DNA of 64,000 nucleotides from a virus. Lineage: Duplodnaviria; Caudoviricetes. The DNA lies in IMG/VR virus record IMGVR_UViG_3300028392_002123. One strand, given 5' to 3'. Of this stretch, positions 1,958 through 49,624 are shown piece after piece. The position numbers and the translations under genes are program-made. The first letter of the stretch is position 1. Each line of letters starts with the position of its first letter. The notes below the pieces were generated by a model. It worked only from the letters and a program-made list of their open reading frames with translations, did no database searches and had not been told where the DNA came from.

Positions 1958-2797
1958 TTAAGGTCTACCGATAAGCATAAACCTTTTGTATCCTTTTAAT
2001 TGAAGTTCACCTTCATATAAAACTTCTTTCATTGGGAATTTCTTCTTCATATGATCAACTGTGTGTACACAATTAATATGTTCATCGATGTCAAATAAAT
2101 TATTACTTTGTATAACTACGATGGGATCGGATTCAAGTTCTTTGAAACGTATTTGATTGTACCAGCTATCATCCATGTGTTCTGCACTGGTGTTAATGAT
2201 CAAGTTGGGAAGGAATTTTTCTTCAAAAACTTTTTCCTTTTTAAAATCTTCCACGGGCAAGACATATCCTGTTTTTTGTAAGATAATATCGTTTAAGTCA
2301 GTGCAGACACTTTTGACCTTAAAGTCTGTGAGTTTGTCTAAATTAAAAATATTATCTGAAAAGGTACATGCAGTTCTATCCATGTCGACTATTCTAATTT
2401 TATTATAATCAAATTTAAAATAATCCACTAACTGTCCGAACCAGCCGGCCAATATCAATACGTTTGGTTTATCAAGATTAATTTTACTAAGTTCTGTTGA
2501 TAACCAAATTTTACTTTGTACTTGACCTCGGCTATATGCATCACACAATACTGCACCATCTCCTTGATATCTAAAATATTTGTGAAAGATATCAAGGTGT
2601 TTGTTTGGTGCAAATTTTCTAACAGTACCGATAAACTCTTCCGCACTTCCATCAGATTCTGATTTAATTGTTGGATTATTTGCATAGAGAAGTTTAAGCA
2701 CAAAAAGTATATAATTCCTGGCTTGGTCTTCTTGCATAAAACCAAAGTATTCTTCTAGTCCGTGTAACCAATGTAAAGATCCAGTGCCCGATTCCAT
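1958..2797 (-). CDS. Putative class I SAM-dependent methyltransferase-like protein
   Basis: VLILAGWFG glycine loop, acidic VDMD, INTSAEH. Confidence 0.5.
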   Translation of the reverse strand: MESGTGSLHWLHGLEEYFGFMQEDQARNYILFVLKLLYANNPTIKSESDGSAEEFIGTVRKFAPNKHLDIFHKYFRYQGDGAVLCDAYSRGQVQSKIWLSTELSKINLDKPNVLILAGWFGQLVDYFKFDYNKIRIVDMDRTACTFSDNIFNLDKLTDFKVKSVCTDLNDIILQKTGYVLPVEDFKKEKVFEEKFLPNLIINTSAEHMDDSWYNQIRFKELESDPIVVIQSNNLFDIDEHINCVHTVDHMKKKFPMKEVLYEGELQLKGYKRFMLIGRP

Positions 2798-3363
2798 TAT
2801 TTTCTTTCAGGGTATTTTGTCATATTTAGATTCCTGAAACAACTTTGTAGTGCCACAATCTGACTCCAGCAGTCCCAAGCGGCATGATGCAGTCTAGGAT
2901 TAGGACGTTCATGTTCGATCAAGCCATATACTGTTCTAGCGTCTCGAACTTGCCAATACTTCCAAGGAAATCCTCTGCCCAAATGTTTGCACACTTGTTC
3001 AAGAATAACAATATCAAATGCAGGACCGTTGGCCCACATGTTATCAAAACTTTTACACCATCTATGAAAGTCTAGCATTACCTGTTGAATAGGGTGTCTG
3101 TCATCATCTGTAAATGCTTCAAATTGAACTTCGGGTTTTTGTTGTCCCCACCAAGCCAAAGTGTTATCATCTATATGTGCTTCGGGCCATGTAAAACTAG
3201 CAGGGTCAATTCTACGATAAAATGTATCCATGAGGATCTTATCGCCTTCGTAACTTTCCCTGTCATCACCAAACGGGTCGAAACGAATAGCACCAATGGT
3301 AATTACCACGCTGTTAGGCGTAGTTGCCAATGTTTCGATGTCCAACATGATATCATTGGCCAT
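2797..3363 (-). CDS. DEDD 3'-5' exoribonuclease (Rv2179c-like)
   Basis: MLDIETL, WANGPAFD, RDART, HHAAWD. Confidence 0.8.
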   Translation of the reverse strand: MANDIMLDIETLATTPNSVVITIGAIRFDPFGDDRESYEGDKILMDTFYRRIDPASFTWPEAHIDDNTLAWWGQQKPEVQFEAFTDDDRHPIQQVMLDFHRWCKSFDNMWANGPAFDIVILEQVCKHLGRGFPWKYWQVRDARTVYGLIEHERPNPRLHHAAWDCWSQIVALQSCFRNLNMTKYPERK

Positions 3364-3521
3364 TGCTGTCTTTCTTTTTCAGTGACCAAGTGCCGTCTTT
3401 GTTATCAGTCCATTCTAATACATCGCCCTCTTGCCAACCTGCTTCTTCGAGCATATCTGGGGGAAATGTCAAAATACAGTCTCCGGTTGCAGGGTCTTCT
3501 TCTACATTCAATATCCACGAT

Positions 3522-4034
3522 TTATTCGTCATGTTTGATTACCTCTACTCCACTTTTTTTAAGGAATTTGATACCACTATCATCTCTATAGTCTTCACTA
3601 TAAAATACACGGCTAATACCTGACTGAAAAATAAGTTTACTGCATTCCATACAAGGAGCGTGAGTAACAAATAAATCAGCGCCAAGACCACTGTCATTAG
3701 ACTTCGCCAATTTTGCAATAGCATTTGATTCTGCATGTAATACTTCTGGTTTAGTTTTTAACCCGTAACGAACATTTCGCTGTGCTGTTTCATGCCAACC
3801 TTCAAAAGGATACTGTGTATCAAATTCGTCGGGATCTAACCAGCCTCCGGCACCTTTATCCCAGACTTTATCTTCACAGTTATTTTCCCAGCCTGCAGGC
3901 ATGCCATTGTAGCCCATGCTGATAACTCTGTCGTCTTTGACAATGACTGCGCCCACTTGTAGTCTACGAGCATGACTCATTTTAGCTACTTCGTGGGCAA
4001 TATTGTTATATAGTTTTTGGAATTTAGGCTTCAT
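3522..4034 (-). CDS. dCMP deaminase
   Basis: GYNG, HAESNAI, PCMECSK Zn motifs. Confidence 0.92.
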   Translation of the reverse strand: MKPKFQKLYNNIAHEVAKMSHARRLQVGAVIVKDDRVISMGYNGMPAGWENNCEDKVWDKGAGGWLDPDEFDTQYPFEGWHETAQRNVRYGLKTKPEVLHAESNAIAKLAKSNDSGLGADLFVTHAPCMECSKLIFQSGISRVFYSEDYRDDSGIKFLKKSGVEVIKHDE

Positions 4035-4040
4035 AGCAAG

Positions 4041-4069
4041 ATTGTACTATAAAGCCTTGACGTTGTCAA
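4041..4069 (-). promoter_or_regulatory. sigma70-type promoter, ATG 6 nt after -10 (leaderless)
   Basis: TTGACA-17-TACAAT-N6-ATG(4034). Confidence 0.65.
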
Positions 4070-4072
4070 TAC

Positions 4073-4696
4073 TTACTTAACCAAAGTAACAAGTATGCCA
4101 ACCGGTGTAGTTATAGGATCGCAGTCTACACCAAAATTTTCTTTTACCCAATGATTGGTAAAATGGTTCCATGTGCAATCATATTTGGTACTGAACTGCA
4201 ATAGCTTTTTGTTTTGTTGAATTACTTCAGTGAAGATTGTTGTATGATCTTCAAAGGCGTCATAGCGAGGATACTCGATGCTAAAGCCGCCAACTTGATG
4301 CCACCAAGCAAAGCTGTCTAAGTCCGGACGATAGATCATCATGATCCATGCATCTGGATATTGAGCCTTAATAGCATCTAAGTGATAGGCCCACTCATGA
4401 CTTTTAATAAACTGTGTGCCTTCTTTTACTGGCCATGGTGCATCTACGTTGGTTTGATCTAATTCTGCTGGATATTCCATGCCCCGACCAAAGTAAGTAC
4501 CTGTGTGTCCAGTAAATTTAATTTTATCCGGATTACGTTCTGCATCAATACTTTCCAAATGAGTATTATGCCATTCTCTTTCTTCTTTACGGTCACTGAT
4601 GTTAGCACCTGGCATAGTTTCTAACATTTGAATAATGTAACTCCAGCGACTGCCTATACCTCCGGTACAGAATATTCTTTGAGGTAATTTGCTCAT
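4073..4696 (-). CDS. Hypothetical protein, possible sulfotransferase-like P-loop fold
   Basis: N-terminal TGGIGSRWS; YRPD motif. Confidence 0.4.
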   Translation of the reverse strand: MSKLPQRIFCTGGIGSRWSYIIQMLETMPGANISDRKEEREWHNTHLESIDAERNPDKIKFTGHTGTYFGRGMEYPAELDQTNVDAPWPVKEGTQFIKSHEWAYHLDAIKAQYPDAWIMMIYRPDLDSFAWWHQVGGFSIEYPRYDAFEDHTTIFTEVIQQNKKLLQFSTKYDCTWNHFTNHWVKENFGVDCDPITTPVGILVTLVK

Positions 4697-4697
4697 T

Positions 4698-5573
4698 TTA
4701 TTTCCTAGTTAATTTTTGTTCTGCTAAAATTTGAAACTGCTCGAACTCGTCGGGTTTCATAAAAACAGTATGTTCTGTACCAGGGTAAGCACGATTAACA
4801 ACATCATCTATATATTGCTCATAACCCTTTTCTATAATAGGTACTAAGTCTACGTAGACTTTGCTGTGACGAGGTGTATGTTTTTCATACATCTTAAATA
4901 AGTCTGCTCCAATAATATGCACACCGTCGCCTCGGTTACCCGATCCCAAACTAATAATAGGGATAGGTAGTTTTTCTTGTAGGTACTCGACAACTTCGGA
5001 TGTAACAACTTCTGCCATGATACTAAAACAGCCTGCTTCATAAAAAGCCAACGCATCATCTAGCAATGACATTGCATCAACTGCGGTTTTTCCCTGAGCT
5101 TTAAAACCACTTTGTTGTGCATTACGCATTGGACAAATTCCAATATGTCCTTGCACTGGAATACCAGCACGTATAATTGCCTGTATATTTTTAGCGTGAT
5201 ACTGATTGCCTTCACACTTCATTACTTCTGCGCCGCCACGAGCAACGTACATAGCGGCATTTTCAATAGCCTGTGCTTCGCTGTAGTGATAACTCATGTA
5301 AGGCATGTCTACCATGCGTAGGCCATATTGACTGCCACGCTTGACAGCCTGCGCCATGAACATGACTTCTTCGAAGGTCACAGTTGTTGTGCTTTCGTGT
5401 CCAAATAATACCATACCGCCAGTATCACTGACACAGAGAATATCTATGCCCAAACGATCTGCAATGATAGCATTTTCGTAGTCATAAACAGCCAGTTGAG
5501 TTATCGGCTGTTTATTTTTCTTCTTAGCAAGTAATCGATCTATTGTTACTTTTTTTCTAGTTTCGGTGTTCAT
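4698..5573 (-). CDS. panB: Ketopantoate hydroxymethyltransferase
   Basis: VYD, TVTFEEVMF, DMPYMSY, KCEG, GIPVQGHIG, GFKAQGKT, GAD. Confidence 0.88.
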   Translation of the reverse strand: MNTETRKKVTIDRLLAKKKNKQPITQLAVYDYENAIIADRLGIDILCVSDTGGMVLFGHESTTTVTFEEVMFMAQAVKRGSQYGLRMVDMPYMSYHYSEAQAIENAAMYVARGGAEVMKCEGNQYHAKNIQAIIRAGIPVQGHIGICPMRNAQQSGFKAQGKTAVDAMSLLDDALAFYEAGCFSIMAEVVTSEVVEYLQEKLPIPIISLGSGNRGDGVHIIGADLFKMYEKHTPRHSKVYVDLVPIIEKGYEQYIDDVVNRAYPGTEHTVFMKPDEFEQFQILAEQKLTRK

Positions 5574-10603: not shown

Positions 10604-10679
10604 TGGTTGCGGGTGAAGGATTCGAACCTCCGTCCTCCAGGTTATGAGCCTGACAGTCTGACCACTGACGTAACCCGCG
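10604..10679 (-). tRNA. tRNA-fMet (CAT), initiator-type
   Basis: C1:A72 mismatch, anticodon stem TCAGG/CCTGG with CAT, TTCGAAT T-loop, CCA. Confidence 0.88.
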
Positions 10680-21341: not shown

Positions 21342-21972
21342 ATCACTGAACTTGCCGGCCAACCCTATAATAGATTGGTCCGCACTAAAATCTAAATTGC
21401 CAAGAAATGTGGTCATGAGCAATAAAAACTTTGCCGGCAGTTTTTCATTGCTGGACATCAATAAACATCTAACCACAGAAGTTTTAGATACACTTGGCCA
21501 TGCAGGAATTACAGTAACACATTTAGTTGTTTTTTCCAATGGCAAATCTAGGACCAATGATGTAGAAAGAATGATACACAGCGATGTTAAATGGGATAGA
21601 GAAGATAATTCTTGGAAAAGTATACATTGCGGAATTAACTGGGAATTAGAAGGCACAAATTTATGGAAATGGTGGGACATGACTGCATACCCTGCTGTCT
21701 ACCCCACAGGCCCAATGACTCCGGAAAATCATATACTGCATGGCATACACTATGAACGTAGAGGAAGGTCCGGAGTACATCCAAATGCTAGATTAATCGA
21801 ACAGGCTTATATACCCGGTCCTAGTTTGGTACGCACAGATGTGCCGCACAGCACTATATTTGGCAAGGAAGGCTATACTCCCAGAGCAGGTATTAGTCTA
21901 CGAATAGATGAAACTAATATTTCATCCTGGGAAGATGCTGTAGAATTGTTTAAACCTTTGATCAAAGAATGA
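21328..21972 (+). CDS. 2OG-Fe(II) oxygenase/cupin-like protein
   Basis: HSD...PHST...RAGISLRI; shares GINWELE and WWDM with 20718. Confidence 0.65.
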   Translation: MSYHKSLNLPANPIIDWSALKSKLPRNVVMSNKNFAGSFSLLDINKHLTTEVLDTLGHAGITVTHLVVFSNGKSRTNDVERMIHSDVKWDREDNSWKSIHCGINWELEGTNLWKWWDMTAYPAVYPTGPMTPENHILHGIHYERRGRSGVHPNARLIEQAYIPGPSLVRTDVPHSTIFGKEGYTPRAGISLRIDETNISSWEDAVELFKPLIKE

Positions 21973-23453
21973 ATGTAATTTTAGTCAATGGCATCTATGA
22001 CTTGATGCCCAGTAGAAGTCTTGGTCCTTACTTGCTAAGACATGTGTTAGCCAAGAATGGCTATACCTGTCAAGTAATCGATCACTGTCAGGAATTCACA
22101 GCCGACGAACTCTACGCTACTATCAAACACTTTATCACCAAGGACACAGTATGCTTGGGATTCAGTACTACATTCTGGCGCGACATAGAACGTAAGATAT
22201 GGAACAACAATGGCGGCATGCCGCCTAACTTAGACACAGCCAGTCGTAGAATTAAACAGGAATATCCCCATATTAAACTAGTGCTAGGTGGTGCAGGCAT
22301 ACGCAATGTGGGTGCCAAGGTGGATCACGTTGACGCACTGGTAGTGGGTGAAGCCGAAGACCTGTTCATTGAACTCTTAGATCACTGGACCAAAGGCACA
22401 GCAGAACCTCCACGTAAAACAAATACAACAGTGAACAAGCCCTACTACAATCAATGTATAAACAAAGATTATGATGTCAGTACCTGCGACTTTATGTGGA
22501 GTTTCAGCGACGCAATTCTGCCCGGAGAACCCCTGCCCTTGGAAACAGCCAGGGGTTGTATTTTTAAGTGCAAGTTTTGTAGTTATCCGCACTTGGGTAA
22601 AAAGAAAATGGACTACTTAAAACCCATAGAACACATACGCGAACACATGATGCACAACTATGAACGTTGGGGTACACGACACTATATCATGCTGGATGAC
22701 ACATTCAATGACAGTGAACACAAGATAGACACACTCTTGGACATGACTCGTCGATTGCCTTTTAAAATAGGCTATGTTGCTTATATTAGAGCTGACTTGG
22801 TGCATAGATTCAAAGGACAGGCGGAAAAGCTACAGGAGTCCGGACTTGAAAGCTGTTTCTTTGGACTTGAAAGTCTACACCCCCAGGCCAGTCAAGCAGT
22901 GGGCAAGGGCTGGAGTGGTCGACATGCCAGAGAATATATACCGCATTTACTGCACGACATATGGCAGGATAAGGTCAATGTGACCACAGGCTTTATTGCA
23001 GGCCTACCCGGAGAAGACGCTGACAGTTTGCTGGACACACTTAAATGGGTCAATGACAATGGCATCATGACATTCTGGTTGGGCTTGGGTATCAGCAGTC
23101 CTGCCAGCTTGGCCGCAGGCAGCATGGATGGTGTGGCCTTTTACAGTGAGTTTGAACGTAACGCTGACAAATACGGCTATAAATTTGACAGCAAAGGTTG
23201 GTGGTACAATGATCTATGGACACATCATACTGCGGAAAAGTTTGCCATGGAACGGCTTAACTATTATAGAAAACTTAAACGTATTAGCTGTTGGTTCCAT
23301 ATTCAGCTACGTGCCTTTGGCTACACAGACGACGAACTATGGGCCATTGCCGGCAGTCAACTCACACACAATGGCTTTTTAACAGATCAGACATTTCTGG
23401 ACCGCAGAGACAAATACGTGGCTGACTATAAGAAATTGTTGTTGACACTATAA
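21969..23453 (+). CDS. B12-binding radical SAM enzyme
   Basis: N-terminal cobalamin-binding-like domain (LVLGG, GEAED); ETARGCIFKCKFC; DDTFN; FGLES. Confidence 0.88.
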   Translation: MNVILVNGIYDLMPSRSLGPYLLRHVLAKNGYTCQVIDHCQEFTADELYATIKHFITKDTVCLGFSTTFWRDIERKIWNNNGGMPPNLDTASRRIKQEYPHIKLVLGGAGIRNVGAKVDHVDALVVGEAEDLFIELLDHWTKGTAEPPRKTNTTVNKPYYNQCINKDYDVSTCDFMWSFSDAILPGEPLPLETARGCIFKCKFCSYPHLGKKKMDYLKPIEHIREHMMHNYERWGTRHYIMLDDTFNDSEHKIDTLLDMTRRLPFKIGYVAYIRADLVHRFKGQAEKLQESGLESCFFGLESLHPQASQAVGKGWSGRHAREYIPHLLHDIWQDKVNVTTGFIAGLPGEDADSLLDTLKWVNDNGIMTFWLGLGISSPASLAAGSMDGVAFYSEFERNADKYGYKFDSKGWWYNDLWTHHTAEKFAMERLNYYRKLKRISCWFHIQLRAFGYTDDELWAIAGSQLTHNGFLTDQTFLDRRDKYVADYKKLLLTL

Positions 23454-40771: not shown

Positions 40772-40786
40772 GCCCCGAAGGGCTTA
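40769..40786. terminator. Hairpin between convergent genes
   Basis: TAAGCCC-CGAA-GGGCTTA. Confidence 0.55.
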
Positions 40787-41386
40787 CATGGTAGGTCCGT
40801 TGCCATTGCGAAAGCCTACACTTCCACCTTCTGCTTCAATACGTGCAATAACGTCTTCAAATAAGATAGGTGCAAAGTCAGTTTGCTCCACGCAGACACA
40901 GTGATAGCGCACATCGGGTTCGTCGCTGTATAAGATTTCTCCTGTACGTGCGTCAACACCACGAGCCTTCTTCACGCGATTGGCATGAGTGTGTCCGTGA
41001 ATGTTAACACCAAAGCGACCCATTGAGTCCGAGTGTAACGGAATATGGCTTAAGATCATTCCGTTCATAACATGGTATGCTCGTAATTCTCTAAAGTACT
41101 GCCTATACTCGTCATCACGGAAGATGTCGTGGTTACCGCGGATTAAGACCTTGTCGCCGTTTAAGCGACTCATGATGCTTAAAGCCTTGCGGTTAATAAC
41201 AACGTCACCTAAGTGGTAGACCTTATCAGTGGGCTTTACCCGTTCGTTCCACGCCTTAACCATAGCTTCGTCCATTTCCTCAGGACTATCCCATGGGCGT
41301 AACTTAGTAACACCATCGTTACGTGTGAAGCGGCAGACGCCGGTATGTCCGAAATGCGTGTCGCTAACTAAAAATACACTAGGCAT
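40784..41386 (-). CDS. Calcineurin-like metallophosphoesterase
   Basis: SDTHFGH, LGDV, GNHD, SHIP, HGHTH. Confidence 0.9.
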   Translation of the reverse strand: MPSVFLVSDTHFGHTGVCRFTRNDGVTKLRPWDSPEEMDEAMVKAWNERVKPTDKVYHLGDVVINRKALSIMSRLNGDKVLIRGNHDIFRDDEYRQYFRELRAYHVMNGMILSHIPLHSDSMGRFGVNIHGHTHANRVKKARGVDARTGEILYSDEPDVRYHCVCVEQTDFAPILFEDVIARIEAEGGSVGFRNGNGPTM

Positions 41387-41916: not shown

Positions 41917-42008
41917 TGGTACCCCCGGCGGGAATCGAACCCACATGAACCAATTATCTGTTGCTTACGGGATATAAATCCGCCGTTTTACCGTTAAACT
42001 ACAGGGGC
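41917..42008 (-). tRNA. Atypical tRNA, apparent anticodon TAT (Ile-like), long variable region
   Basis: Acceptor GCCCCTG/CGGGGGT, D arm GTTT/AAAC, T arm GTGGG-TTCGATT-CCCGC, CCA; irregular anticodon arm GCGGATTTATATCCCGT. Confidence 0.7.
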
Positions 42009-42013
42009 ATATT

Positions 42014-42090
42014 TGGTGCCGCAACCTGGACTCGAACCAGGGACCTTTCGCTTATCAAGCGAATGCTCTAACCAACTGAGCTATTGAGGC
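42014..42090 (-). tRNA. tRNA-Ile (GAT)
   Basis: Cloverleaf; TTCGC-TT GAT AA-GCGAA; CCA. Confidence 0.92.
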
Positions 42091-42955: not shown

Positions 42956-43030
42956 TGGTGGTGATAGTTGGATTTGAACCAACGACCGGCCGCGTATGAA
43001 GCGGATGCACTACCACTGTGCTATATCACC
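42956..43030 (-). tRNA. tRNA-Met (CAT), elongator-type (Ile2 not excluded)
   Basis: Cloverleaf; CCGC-TT CAT AC-GCGG; paired 1:72; CCA. Confidence 0.85.
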
Positions 43031-44030: not shown

Positions 44031-44675
44031 TTACTTGACAAAATTTACTTCTATTTTTTGTTTTGGAAAAGTGATGTAGTTGAAGTTTTCATTGACTTGA
44101 TGCTGTGTGCGTTGTTTGTTTGGATCAGGAAATCCAATACCCAGTAACAATAGCACTCCGCCTTCAGTGCCCAGAACTTTTTGTACTTTTGGGCCGTCGA
44201 AACAACCGCAGTAGCCAGTGGAATAGCCTAGCAAGTTCGCTGTAAGGTTCAAGTATCCAGATGCAATGCCCAAGGAGACTTCTCTGTCATTGTACAAAGC
44301 GTCGGGCACTCTTTCGTTGTCTTTTTCTAACCATGCCATTTGATCATTGCGATGTACACCTTCGTGTAAAACTGGTGTGACCATTTGATCTTCAAAAACC
44401 ACTAACAAATTTGCCAATGTTTGTGTGTTTGTTTCGACAATATTTTTTTCCCTGTTAACTGTAAATCCATTGGTTAACCCATGTATAGTTTCAATGATAT
44501 TTCTGTTAGTTATGAAATGACACTTATAGTAAGCTACGTTTTGTTTACTGGGACATTGTGTAACTGCTGATACTAGTGTATCTAGATCTGCTTGCGGAAT
44601 AGACTTAGTCAAATCCCAATTACGTTGGCAATGTTGACTTTTTTCAATTATGGTTTCGATGTCATTGTTTGTCAT
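44031..44675 (-). CDS. Nitroreductase family protein
   Basis: CQRNWD, CPSKQN, ANLLGYSTGYCGCF, LLLGIGF. Confidence 0.8.
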   Translation of the reverse strand: MTNNDIETIIEKSQHCQRNWDLTKSIPQADLDTLVSAVTQCPSKQNVAYYKCHFITNRNIIETIHGLTNGFTVNREKNIVETNTQTLANLLVVFEDQMVTPVLHEGVHRNDQMAWLEKDNERVPDALYNDREVSLGIASGYLNLTANLLGYSTGYCGCFDGPKVQKVLGTEGGVLLLLGIGFPDPNKQRTQHQVNENFNYITFPKQKIEVNFVK

Positions 44676-44686
44676 TGTATCTCCTA

Positions 44687-45604
44687 TTAACTAATATCTA
44701 ATTTGTTATTTACAATGAAGGACATCAAAGATTTATTAGATCTCAGCACCGTATTAGTCATCGATGATTCGGTGGATCCCACCGGCATCAGTCCTAGATT
44801 AAATACAGTTTCTTTAAATTCTTTATTTTTAAAAACACTGATTGCATCACTGACAATTTTTTCTTTCATTGATTTACTCATTGATTTGGCTACCACTAAG
44901 CAAATATAACTTTGGTAAGGAAAAGATTCTTTAAAATATTTGTCCCACGTAAGTATGTTATCTCCCATGTCGTGGCTGGCAAATAATATACTAACACGGC
45001 TGTCTCCGATAAAAGGTTTGACACTTGAATAGTTGCCAAATGTACAGTCTACTTGCCCTGCTAGAACATCCATGGCGCCTTTATTACCTCCACTGGGATA
45101 AGGAACGATAATGTGTTTTCCCTGAGCACGTACAAACAATGCTTCAGTGGCAATATGTTCTGAGCTACCATAGCCGTTGACTGCAAAACTTAGAGATTTT
45201 TTTGTGTTTAAAAACTCGTTGAACGTTGTGATACCCAGACCAGCTCTGCAAGCTAACAAATTAGGAAGTACAGCCACTGTTCCTAAAATTTCTAAATCTC
45301 GTTCAGTGTCGTATTCTAAGTCTTTATAATTTAAAGTGTTAGTGACATAAATCTGTGGCATAGTGGCCATGAGCACACTTTCACCTTTGAGTACTTGTTT
45401 CATTGCCAGTCTGCCGGCCGCACCCGGACGATTCATAACAATATAATCTTCTATTGAGAGATTCTTGACTATCAGTCTAGTAATTCTATCACTGGGACCG
45501 CCAGGAGCATGATGCACAGTATACTCAATAATCGATGCAGGCTTTGCACAGACAGAGAAAATTACCAGTGATATCACTAGTAAAAATTTAATTGTATTCT
45601 TCAT
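44687..45604 (-). CDS. Bug/TctC tripartite tricarboxylate transporter substrate-binding protein
   Basis: Signal peptide; APGGPSDRITR, NRPGAAG, GYGSSEH, VPYPSGG, DVLAGQVD. Confidence 0.85.
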   Translation of the reverse strand: MKNTIKFLLVISLVIFSVCAKPASIIEYTVHHAPGGPSDRITRLIVKNLSIEDYIVMNRPGAAGRLAMKQVLKGESVLMATMPQIYVTNTLNYKDLEYDTERDLEILGTVAVLPNLLACRAGLGITTFNEFLNTKKSLSFAVNGYGSSEHIATEALFVRAQGKHIIVPYPSGGNKGAMDVLAGQVDCTFGNYSSVKPFIGDSRVSILFASHDMGDNILTWDKYFKESFPYQSYICLVVAKSMSKSMKEKIVSDAISVFKNKEFKETVFNLGLMPVGSTESSMTNTVLRSNKSLMSFIVNNKLDIS

Positions 45605-46834: not shown

Positions 46835-47773
46835 ATGAAATCTGGATTTGAAAATAACAAGTTTTACGTCGAATATACCAGCCCTGGCCGGAAGATTGGT
46901 AATATGCGCGAAGAGCTTGATCTAGCGGTTAAAACAATTTCCGATTCTAGTGGCGACAAGTTACTGTTAGGTCTTAGCAGTGGCTTGGACAGTCAAGTAA
47001 TACTACACAGTCTACACGAACAAGGTTTGCCATATACCTGTGCATTTTTATACATGCCAGGATACAATGATCATGAATACAACAATGTAAAAGTTTTGGA
47101 AAAGAAATATGGTTTCAATGCATTGATAGCTGAAATCGATCCTGCCAAAGAAAAAGATGAAGTATTAGACCAAGCCTATTCTCAGCACATACTTCCCAAT
47201 CATTTCATGCATAAAAAGTTTTTATCATTGTTGCCCGCGGACATGGATTACTTGAACGGTATCGAAGGACCCGACATTGTGATGAATGAAGAATCTGGTA
47301 AAAGATATATCATGGAGGCCCATTGGAATTTTGAAAATACTAGACTAAGAACATTGCGTAGCTTAGATAGGTCAGGCAAAGTATTAAACATTGATCGTAA
47401 CGAAACCAGTGAAGCGTTCTTACTCAGTATAATCAACGATGCTGTATTCAGAGGTTATATCAACAGTATTCGTTATATTTTACACAATGACCTTGTTGAC
47501 GGATCAGGTAAAAAGCCGGGCATTATATTCAACTACAATTATTATATCAAACCCATCATCATGGGAAGATACTGGGGTCATGAGCTATTGTATTTCCCAA
47601 AATCTATGGGCGTGGAAAAAATAGATTGGATTATGAACTGTCCCATTAAAAGTACATATAGTCGAGATGTTGTTCACACTGAATATTATACTCTGAGAAA
47701 ATTCTTGTTACAAGATAAAGTAGATGTACTGAGAATGGAAGACAAATTGCCTACATCAGAGGCCCACAGTTAA
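46835..47773 (+). CDS. PP-loop superfamily protein (paralogue of 36732)
   Basis: LGLSSGLDSQ, YYIKPI, YFPK. Confidence 0.62.
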   Translation: MKSGFENNKFYVEYTSPGRKIGNMREELDLAVKTISDSSGDKLLLGLSSGLDSQVILHSLHEQGLPYTCAFLYMPGYNDHEYNNVKVLEKKYGFNALIAEIDPAKEKDEVLDQAYSQHILPNHFMHKKFLSLLPADMDYLNGIEGPDIVMNEESGKRYIMEAHWNFENTRLRTLRSLDRSGKVLNIDRNETSEAFLLSIINDAVFRGYINSIRYILHNDLVDGSGKKPGIIFNYNYYIKPIIMGRYWGHELLYFPKSMGVEKIDWIMNCPIKSTYSRDVVHTEYYTLRKFLLQDKVDVLRMEDKLPTSEAHS

Positions 47774-48688
47774 TTCTTCTACAATCTGTTTAACTGGTTT
47801 AATACTAGTAATATGATCTATTGCACCACCAGCAAAGACGTGTCCTTCGTTGGGACTTTGAATACCTTTTGCTAGTCCGTATGTATTATTTTCTATGTCA
47901 AGAGCAGTTTTACTAAACAAAAAACCACTTTGGTTTGCTGTTCCTATTTTTACAGTTTCCGAGTAGGATGATTCTAACATTTTCTTTTTAGTTTCCAGCG
48001 ACACAACTGATTCTTCCGACACCGCAAAAACTGTGCCGAGACTGACAATATTCGCACCTGCAGAAAGATGTTCTTTTATTCCCTGACTGTCATATATTCC
48101 GCCTTGTGCTATAATAATCCAATTTGGTTTTAACAAACGTAAAGCACGTATAGCTTCTACTAGATCAAATGTTGTCGAAGAAACTCTACCTGCACCTTTA
48201 TCACCTTTGAGTATGATACCATCTAAGGAATTCATAACATTTGAATTTTTATTCAAATGTTCGATCACAGTTTCAAATGAAAGGAATTTACCTAGTACCT
48301 TAGTTCCATTTTCTTGAACTTGTTTTAATAATCTAGGAAAACGTGGATCTGTGACAAAGTAGTTGTCAAACATTTCTATGTACGCTGGCTTTAACTCTAA
48401 GATAATTTTAAATGTTTCTGTGGAATCAGTGAAAATAGGTGTGTTAAGTCCTAGTATAAAATCCGAATCACCTACTTTGTTTATATAGTATGTTAGATGT
48501 TCTCTTAGAACTTTTGGATCGTATATAAAAGTAGATCCTGTTTGAACAGTATGATTAAATGTAACAAAACTGGGATAACATCCTGTTTCTTTGACTGCCA
48601 GTGCCAACTTGACGTTGGACACAGTGGTCATCCCGGAACAGATAATGGGATACTTAGAATTAAAATTATTTTGATGATCTGTGTACAT
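47756..48688 (-). CDS. Nitronate monooxygenase / FabK-like FMN oxidoreductase
   Basis: PIICSGM, GAGRVS, IAQGGIYD, GANIVSLGTVF, GHVFAG. Confidence 0.78.
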   Translation of the reverse strand: MYTDHQNNFNSKYPIICSGMTTVSNVKLALAVKETGCYPSFVTFNHTVQTGSTFIYDPKVLREHLTYYINKVGDSDFILGLNTPIFTDSTETFKIILELKPAYIEMFDNYFVTDPRFPRLLKQVQENGTKVLGKFLSFETVIEHLNKNSNVMNSLDGIILKGDKGAGRVSSTTFDLVEAIRALRLLKPNWIIIAQGGIYDSQGIKEHLSAGANIVSLGTVFAVSEESVVSLETKKKMLESSYSETVKIGTANQSGFLFSKTALDIENNTYGLAKGIQSPNEGHVFAGGAIDHITSIKPVKQIVEELTVGL

Positions 48689-48724
48689 ATGAAAATATTT
48701 ATAGCACACTATCATCTATAATAT

Positions 48725-49546: not shown

Positions 49547-49624
49547 TGGTGGGCCCCCGGAGAGTCGAACTCCGCACCAATGGATTATGAGTCCACTGCT
49601 CTAACCAACATGAGCTAGAGGCCC
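49547..49624 (-). tRNA. tRNA-Ile2 (CAT, lysidine-type)
   Basis: Cloverleaf; GTGGA-CT CAT AA-TCCAT; GGGCCTC acceptor resembles bacterial Ile2; CCA. Confidence 0.8.

Follow-up and report, generated by a model that had tools for sequence, protein, structure and literature searches.

Routes to AUA decoding and tRNAs with long extra arms

As isoleucyl-tRNA synthetase (IleRS) reads the anticodon of its tRNA, bacteria need either lysidine or a mutated IleRS for AUA. The identity set of the bacterial enzyme comprises A73, C4-G69, U12-A23, G16, U20 and U21 in the tRNA body, together with C29-G41, G/L34, A35, U36, t6A37 and A38 in the anticodon branch (PMC9976931), and E. coli IleRS charges tRNA-Ile with the anticodon UAU poorly, W905 being responsible (PMC3575796). 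In M. mobile, AUA is read without lysidine by a TilS-independent class I tRNA-Ile(UAU), together with a changed synthetase (Arg865; PMC3575796), and B. subtilis can, by the account given in PMC3919564, live on a class I tRNA-Ile(UAU) without TilS. Both the M. mobile tRNA and that of the B. subtilis tilS-deletion suppressor have the four arms usual for class I. Phage T5 was considered as a further class I UAU comparison and set aside, as its Ile tRNAs carry the anticodons GAU and CAU only; its annotation also lists 'stable RNAs' between its tRNAs.

A long arm between nucleotides 44 and 48 is shared by the class II tRNAs (Leu, Ser, Tyr and Sec). Long arms occur together with UAU in allo-tRNAs of the (8/4) and (9/3) types, which often have this anticodon (Mukai et al. 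2017, PMC5389517), and in the nematode nev-tRNA-Ile(UAU), which is charged with Leu (Hamashima et al. 2012, PMC3333845). A full-text literature search did not reveal any tRNA described as having a second anticodon-type arm.

The gene described here lies on the minus strand of a 64,000-nt stretch of DNA from a Caudoviricetes virus (IMG/VR record IMGVR_UViG_3300028392_002123; hereafter the window) and encodes a five-arm tRNA-Ile(UAU). It shares with the M. mobile tRNA a UAU anticodon that would read AUA without lysidine, and the same problem, namely that an ordinary IleRS with Trp905 accepts UAU poorly. It differs from the M. mobile and B. subtilis tRNAs in its fifth arm, and from the M. mobile system in that the host enzyme is presumably unchanged. 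We favour a reading, with a probability of roughly one in three, in which the two jobs of an anticodon would be split between two hairpins, so that the UAU arm decodes AUA while a GAU-like spare arm is read by IleRS.

Structure and setting of the five-arm gene

ARAGORN called a tRNA-Ile(tat) of 92 nt, which includes an encoded CCA, at 41917-42008 on the minus strand, and the Rfam tRNA model RF00005 matched the same interval with 54.9 bits (E 4e-9 over the 64-kb window; gathering score 29), placing a 19-nt insertion in the variable region. Read along the minus strand, which carries all of the features that follow, the gene opens with the acceptor strand GCCCCUG (42002-42008), which pairs with CGGGGGU (41921-41927) to give a 7-bp stem with the wobbles G1·U72 and U6·G67. 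The D arm GUUU/AACGGUA/AAAC (41985-41999) has a 4-bp stem and a 7-nt loop containing G18 and G19, and is followed by the true anticodon arm GCGGA/UUUAUAU/CCCGU (41967-41983), with the anticodon UAU at 41974-41976 and an A31·C39 mismatch. In this arm U33 and A37 are present in the window copy, and U38 and G29:C41 are not of the Ile type. Next comes the extra hairpin AGCAA/CAGAUAA/UUGGUU (41948-41965; loop 41954-41960, with GAU at 41956-41958), in which Watson-Crick C:G, A:U and A:U pairs adjoin the loop and a G:U and an A:U pair lie below, with a bulged G. The linker CAU (41945-41947), which ends in U48, the nucleotide that forms the Levitt pair with A15, leads to the T arm GUGGG/UUCGAUU/CCCGC (41928-41944), and the gene closes with the discriminator A73 (41920) and CCA (41917-41919). 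The anticodon stem and the T stem are 22 nt apart.

The acceptor, D and T arms and the CCA, which the original prediction had judged to be good, were confirmed by ARAGORN, Rfam and the strand reading, and the apparent UAU anticodon, the length of 92 nt, the A:C mismatch and the variable region of ~22 nt were all as it had described them. Its alternative GGAU/AUCC register for the anticodon arm was rejected, as this leaves a 4-nt loop and relatives hold the five-pair register with a wobble-type 31:39. Single-sequence folding is uninformative for tRNAs (the minimum free energy structure of the window tRNA was not a cloverleaf, with a z-score of -0.08), and comparative analysis was therefore used instead.

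The gene belongs to a set of 29 tRNA genes in the window, all on the minus strand, and lies in a run ordered His - Ile(GAU) - five-arm Ile(UAU) - Trp - Ser with spacers of 5-9 nt. Its Ile(GAU) neighbour (42014-42090, minus strand) is an ordinary tRNA with the anticodon loop UUGAUAA and C29:G41, and has the arm that the extra hairpin resembles. The ORFs near the array are phage-like or auxiliary-metabolic by Pfam and PHROGs, and searches of the flanking ORFs with both found no tRNA-related enzyme. Auxiliary-type genes around the array lie at 21969-23453, 40784-41386, 44031-45604 and 47756-48715; the auxiliary-type products near it include a radical SAM / B12-binding protein, a phosphoesterase (phrog_547), a nitroreductase-family protein, a TctC-like solute receptor and an NMO/IMPDH-like protein. 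Against 50,697 cultured phages, the window DNA had no close relative.

A long arm combined with UAU could also mark a substrate of LeuRS or SerRS, with AUA read as Leu or Ser in a form of recoding or deliberate mistranslation. A73 and A15:U48 are features of bacterial tRNA-Leu as well (PMC9976931), nematode class II UAU tRNAs are charged with Leu (PMC3333845), and UAU is a predominant anticodon of allo-tRNAs (PMC5389517). However, the phage tRNA has a class I D arm (4-bp stem, 7-nt loop) in place of the 3-bp D stem and enlarged D loop of class II tRNAs, and it differs from the window's own Leu, Ser and Tyr tRNAs in anticodon, D arm, A73 and its 7-nt arm loop. It lacks the G73 that Ser tRNAs carry, and it maintains all of its 7 acceptor and 5 T pairs rather than adopting the 8/4 or 9/3 layout of allo-tRNAs. 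Its extra arm, at 18 nt, combines a 7-nt loop with a bulge, whereas real variable arms have short loops of 3-5 nt. Taken with the conserved GAU loop, these features set it apart from allo- and nev-tRNAs, and its body is not Ser- or Leu-derived. Wholesale recoding would also be costly, given that AUA makes up 30% of Ile codons in the window, or 20 per 1000 codons (80 ORFs). We regard charging by LeuRS or SerRS as very unlikely.

Conservation and covariation among phage relatives

A blastn search against cultured phages recovered 93-nt homologues in the Vibrio phages henriette 12B8 and V6Aob and in ~38 Thalassavirus genomes; in V6Aob the site is without annotation in its record. IMG/VR was scanned with a pattern of 16 nt of the insert and, separately, with a D-arm pattern free of insert nucleotides, each scan yielding at least 119 loci. 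Among the 119 listed D-arm matches, the exact insert was present in 59 and variant inserts in ~56, two were unrelated class I tRNAs (Lys and Trp), and there was no UAU tRNA without the extra arm. The alignment held 111 distinct relatives (at least 111 in all) once duplicates were dropped, drawn from IMG/VR phage contigs and cultured Vibrio phages. This sample was gathered with family-specific patterns, and as all members probably descend from one origin, sequence counts are not counts of independent events.

Across these 111 relatives the acceptor stem was 100% paired and the T stem 99.8% paired, with double compensatory changes in all 12 pairs (7 + 5) and mean pairwise identities of only 0.57 and 0.63, respectively. 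U8, A9 and A14 were invariant, and the Levitt pair was A15:U48 in 106 relatives and G15:C48 in three, the switch occurring in the Vibrio-phage branch. Positions 26·44 were G·A or A·G and never G·G, covariation that assigns the UAU arm to the canonical site of an anticodon arm and the extra element to the site from which class II variable arms emerge. Of the IleRS body elements, U12-A23 (111/111) and A73 (109/111) are near-universal and present in the window copy, which also has C4-G69, found in 52/111 relatives. The family D loop is AAYGGUA, with Y16 instead of G16, U20 present and A21, and the D stem consists of a G:C and three U:A pairs, or GCUC in the Vibrio-phage members.

Within the UAU loop, U33 was found in 110/111 relatives and A37 in all 111. 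The arm also carries U34, G29:C41 (111/111) and U or C at position 38 (110/111). Positions 31:39 were A·C in 89/111 and G·U, G:C or A:U in the remainder; since most members share the A31·C39 mismatch, it is not damage. By segment, mean identity was highest in the loop of the extra hairpin (0.98); it was 0.94 in the D arm and 0.93 in the UAU arm.

The paired stems and their compensatory changes are the signature of a working tRNA, and we are almost certain that the gene is a real, selected tRNA. A pseudogene, which according to the original prediction would lack conservation, is excluded by these more than 100 covarying relatives. It is also highly improbable that the tRNA gene is decaying and carries a selfish or accidental insert, for instance a mini-intron or the scar of a mobile element: damaged copies do exist (loci L013, L162 and L165/L176), but conservation and covariation extend over all 111 distinct sequences, and the insertion is the most conserved part. 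A short intron in the window tRNA was rejected too: there is no visible bulge-helix-bulge motif, a group I intron would need a larger insert, and Rfam finds a tRNA only. We know of no bacterial splicing system for a 20-nt insert.

Among individual members, the copy at L013:3460-3550 has lost one C from the anticodon stem, on its 3' strand, and its 'anticodon' as called by ARAGORN has 2 nt. In L165 and L176 the 3' end does not pair with the 5' acceptor strand, and the members at L139:3553-3641 and L155:13579-13667 have no encoded CCA. A rearranged copy at L162:12270-12375 (minus strand) retains a normal 5' acceptor strand, D arm and GCGGAUU, after which ~60 nt of AU-rich sequence with AAGGAG-ATG, in which Rfam finds no intron, replaces the rest of the UAU arm. 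Its 3' part has a perfect GAC/CAGAUAA/GUC hairpin followed by the T arm and CCA, and its acceptor pairs at 4/7 positions. Either gene decay or a variant form that has retained only the GAU hairpin could account for this copy.

The extra hairpin resembles the anticodon arm of tRNA-Ile(GAU)

RNAalifold, unprompted, predicted the same five-arm fold, including the extra hairpin. The three pairs next to the hairpin loop change together between variants (CAA/UUG, CGC/GCG, CGA/UCG, CGU/ACG and CCA/UGG) and were 100% paired; two of them show 20 and 15 double changes, and the third is C:G in 110/111 relatives. The lower part is looser, with G opposite U or C across a bulged G and then mostly A:U. The seven loop positions read C in 108 relatives and U in three, A in 111, G in 111, A in 111, U in 111, A in 108 and U in three, and A in 110 and G in one. 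Several other structures were considered and rejected. A CAG/UUG stem with an AUAA tetraloop is refuted by variants such as GCC..GCG, the covarying register giving a 7-nt loop. Pairing of the loop with the tRNA's own anticodon (AUAA:UUAU or AUA:UAU) is contradicted by members with a CAGAUUA loop and no matching change in the anticodon loop, and pairing of AGAU with GUUU of the D stem by the Vibrio-phage members, in which the D stem reads GCUC and the hairpin loop is unchanged. A MazF-type ACA site at the stem-loop junction is not kept in GCC and GUC variants.

The loop C-A-G-A-U-A-A equals the anticodon loop of tRNA-Ile(GAU) with A in place of U33. Both the hairpin and the anticodon arm of tRNA-Ile(GAU), as in E. 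coli tRNA-Ile1 and the neighbouring gene at 42014-42090, have a 7-nt loop of the form Y-N-G-A-U-A-A and a C:G as the third pair from the loop; YUGAUAA was the loop of 48/50 tRNA-Ile(GAU) from the same loci. The hairpin differs in its A33, in having three regular pairs above a bulged lower part, and in standing at the variable-arm position, not under the D stem. The original prediction had taken the extra element for an arm of class II type: a long arm does lie between 44 and 48, but it is a conserved hairpin with a 7-nt loop, a copy of the tRNA-Ile(GAU) anticodon arm, and this alters the probable mechanism.

Scored against the anticodon branch of the IleRS identity set, the extra hairpin has 6/6 elements and the true UAU arm 3/6 (A35, U36 and A37). 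With primes marking hairpin positions, the six are C:G at 29':41' (110/111), G (111), A (111), U (111), A (108) and A (110), three divergent members having U at 37'. The 29':41' pair is fixed while the two pairs above it vary freely, and C29:G41, present in 7% of 1591 distinct tRNAs from the phage loci, reaches 68% among their Ile(GAU) tRNAs and 99% among the hairpins. When the UAU hairpin was removed in silico, ARAGORN called a normal-length tRNA-Ile(GAU) in 94/111 relatives; when the GAU hairpin was removed instead, it called tRNA-Ile(UAU) in 111/111.

The hairpin is tied to UAU tRNAs, and the scanned form of the family is essentially a phage trait

In the 1.7 Mb of loci gathered, ARAGORN identified 2111 tRNAs, 159 of which had the anticodon UAU, all 89-94 nt long. 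A hairpin motif defined as three complementary pairs around YAGAUAA was present in 156/159 UAU tRNAs and in 0 of ~1950 other tRNAs, and there was no four-arm class I UAU tRNA with a 4-5-nt variable loop among the 159. Outside tRNAs, motif matches occurred at approximately chance level or were the 16-mer matches in coding sequence that had brought in some of the loci. Neighbours of the five-arm gene vary between phages; fixed synteny with tRNA-Ile(GAU), considered as evidence for a tandem duplication, was dismissed because the two genes are adjacent in 2/159 cases.

To complement these data, a pattern leaving the anticodon unspecified was run over one genome per species for 185,579 prokaryote species. 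It gave seven matches, of which four were chance matches in coding DNA and three were real, all of them UAU and all inside tRNA arrays. A cellular origin was rejected in view of these results, and the version of the family matched by this pattern is essentially a phage trait. One ten-tRNA array with a five-arm tRNA-Ile(UAU) lies on a complete bacterial chromosome, that of a Kangiellaceae MAG (L190, OZ246006.1, 5.05 Mb; locus positions 2509-5443). This array is probably a prophage and gives a host lead to marine Gammaproteobacteria.

The GAU hairpin could alternatively serve as a decoy or sponge that occupies a factor binding the anticodon arm of tRNA-Ile, be it an anticodon nuclease, a toxin or IleRS. 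tRNA-like RNAs are known in phage tRNA arrays (T5 annotation), and A33' would prevent the hairpin from functioning as a genuine anticodon loop; a decoy, though, would need neither a perfect acceptor stem, A73 and CCA, nor U33 and A37 in the UAU loop, nor an exclusive tie to UAU. To our knowledge, no defence nuclease specific for tRNA-Ile has been described. We consider a decoy unlikely.

Predicted function in AUA decoding and IleRS recognition

The original prediction had offered a TilS-independent AUA decoder, a tRNA charged by another synthetase, or a decoy. The first is best supported, given the intact covarying cloverleaf, the conserved U33, UAU and A37, the A73 and CCA, and the heavy use of AUA; the body is not Leu-, Ser- or Tyr-like, and the decoy is left as a minor rival. 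That the tRNA is expressed and charged with Ile, and what the hairpin does, we infer from the sequence. The tRNA is likely to be charged with Ile and to read AUA independently of TilS: its UAU anticodon, which involves no unmodified C, would read AUA, so that host TilS would not be needed.

Three CAU tRNAs lie in the window, all on the minus strand (10604-10679, 42956-43030 and 49547-49624); by type there are one initiator-like tRNA with a C1·A72 mismatch, one elongator-Met-like tRNA and one Ile2-like tRNA. The last, at 49547-49624, is presumably of the lysidine type, an assignment made in the original prediction that is plausible by its resemblance to E. coli tRNA-Ile2 only. It would provide a second, TilS-dependent AUA route in the same phage, which seems to carry both the CAU and the UAU routes, and the UAU tRNA would then not be the sole one.

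We propose, tentatively, that the hairpin serves IleRS recognition. The tRNA folds into a normal L-shape, with the UAU arm in the usual anticodon-arm place and the fifth arm between nucleotides 44 and 48, and the hairpin would show IleRS the anticodon-branch elements (C29-G41, G34, A35, U36, A37 and A38) absent from the UAU arm, thereby separating recognition for charging from decoding. The flexible C-terminal domain of IleRS might reach the hairpin; otherwise a five-way junction, in which either hairpin might stack under the D stem, could let the GAU hairpin occupy the anticodon-arm place during charging. A33' might keep the spare loop from decoding. We favour this model because it accounts for three observations: the hairpin matches the identity set element by element, it occurs exclusively with UAU, and the identity features of the UAU arm are relaxed. 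A mechanistic precedent is the archaeal LeuRS, a class Ia enzyme related to IleRS, studied by Fukunaga and Yokoyama in 2005: its C-terminal domain reportedly reads the tip of the variable arm of tRNA-Leu, which, rather than the anticodon, provides the identity. The enzyme and the domain are different in that case, and the IleRS version is putative.

The main objection is one of geometry. In complexes of class I synthetases the variable region of the tRNA faces away from the enzyme, on the solvent side, so the hairpin would be badly placed for the anticodon-binding domains in normal docking. By the covariation at 26·44 and 15:48, the arm that lies under the D stem is the UAU arm and not the GAU hairpin; IleRS recognition does not account for the invariant A33', and the three divergent members with U37' also count against it. 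To judge from the report that B. subtilis can live on a class I tRNA-Ile(UAU) without TilS (PMC3919564), an IleRS handle is not always needed.

These points bear on a further reading, in which the tRNA is a functional AUA-reading tRNA-Ile whose hairpin has another job. The hairpin might brace an AU-rich core that bears a mismatch, in keeping with a D stem of G:C plus three U:A pairs and the A·C at 31:39; it might shield the tRNA from, or act as an anti-determinant towards, a host tRNA nuclease or a wrong synthetase, or be the site for a modification enzyme or a phage protein. On this reading its likeness to the GAU arm would go back to an old duplication and have been retained for reasons other than IleRS recognition. 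The lower half is conserved as a block (identity 0.94 in the D arm, 0.93 in the UAU arm and 0.98 in the hairpin loop), which suggests that it forms a specific tertiary structure or has a specific partner; A33' is invariant with no known need for it by IleRS, and the variable side is turned from class I synthetases. However, another job leaves unexplained both the fixation of exactly six Ile identity positions, including the 29':41' C:G beside free pairs, and the tie of the hairpin to UAU tRNAs alone. We view it as possible, though doubtful.

If the split of decoding and charging between the two hairpins holds, the phage would supply an AUA decoder needing neither TilS nor an altered synthetase. 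This would be the first known relocation of an identity set to an extra arm, and would imply that IleRS docks in a new way or that a five-way junction exchanges the hairpins under the D stem. An IleRS handle would be a third solution to AUA reading beside lysidine and a mutated IleRS, and a natural separation of charging identity from decoding, which is an engineering aim of synthetic biology. Should the IleRS idea fail, the hairpin loop must still have a partner, as no other part of this large phage tRNA family is so conserved. The question is directly testable. Cultured Vibrio phages (Thalassavirus, henriette 12B8 and V6Aob) carry the gene, to which annotation pipelines give a plain tRNA-Ile label or which they miss, as in V6Aob.

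Other long-arm tRNAs at the phage loci

The loci also contain phage tRNAs of 84-88 nt that are not related to the GAU-hairpin family. These have class II bodies, with long variable arms ending in GAAA-type loops, and carry the anticodons of Asn(GUU), Cys(GCA), Met/Ile2(CAU), Thr(UGU) or Ile(GAU). They lie at L127:899-986, L154:970-1056, L092:6671-6757, L152:9190-9277, L183:2221-2308, L175:2687-2774, L165:1353-1437 and L161:1858-1941. These are possible mischarging or recoding tRNAs, and the two Asn tRNAs among them have G73, as in tRNA-Ser.
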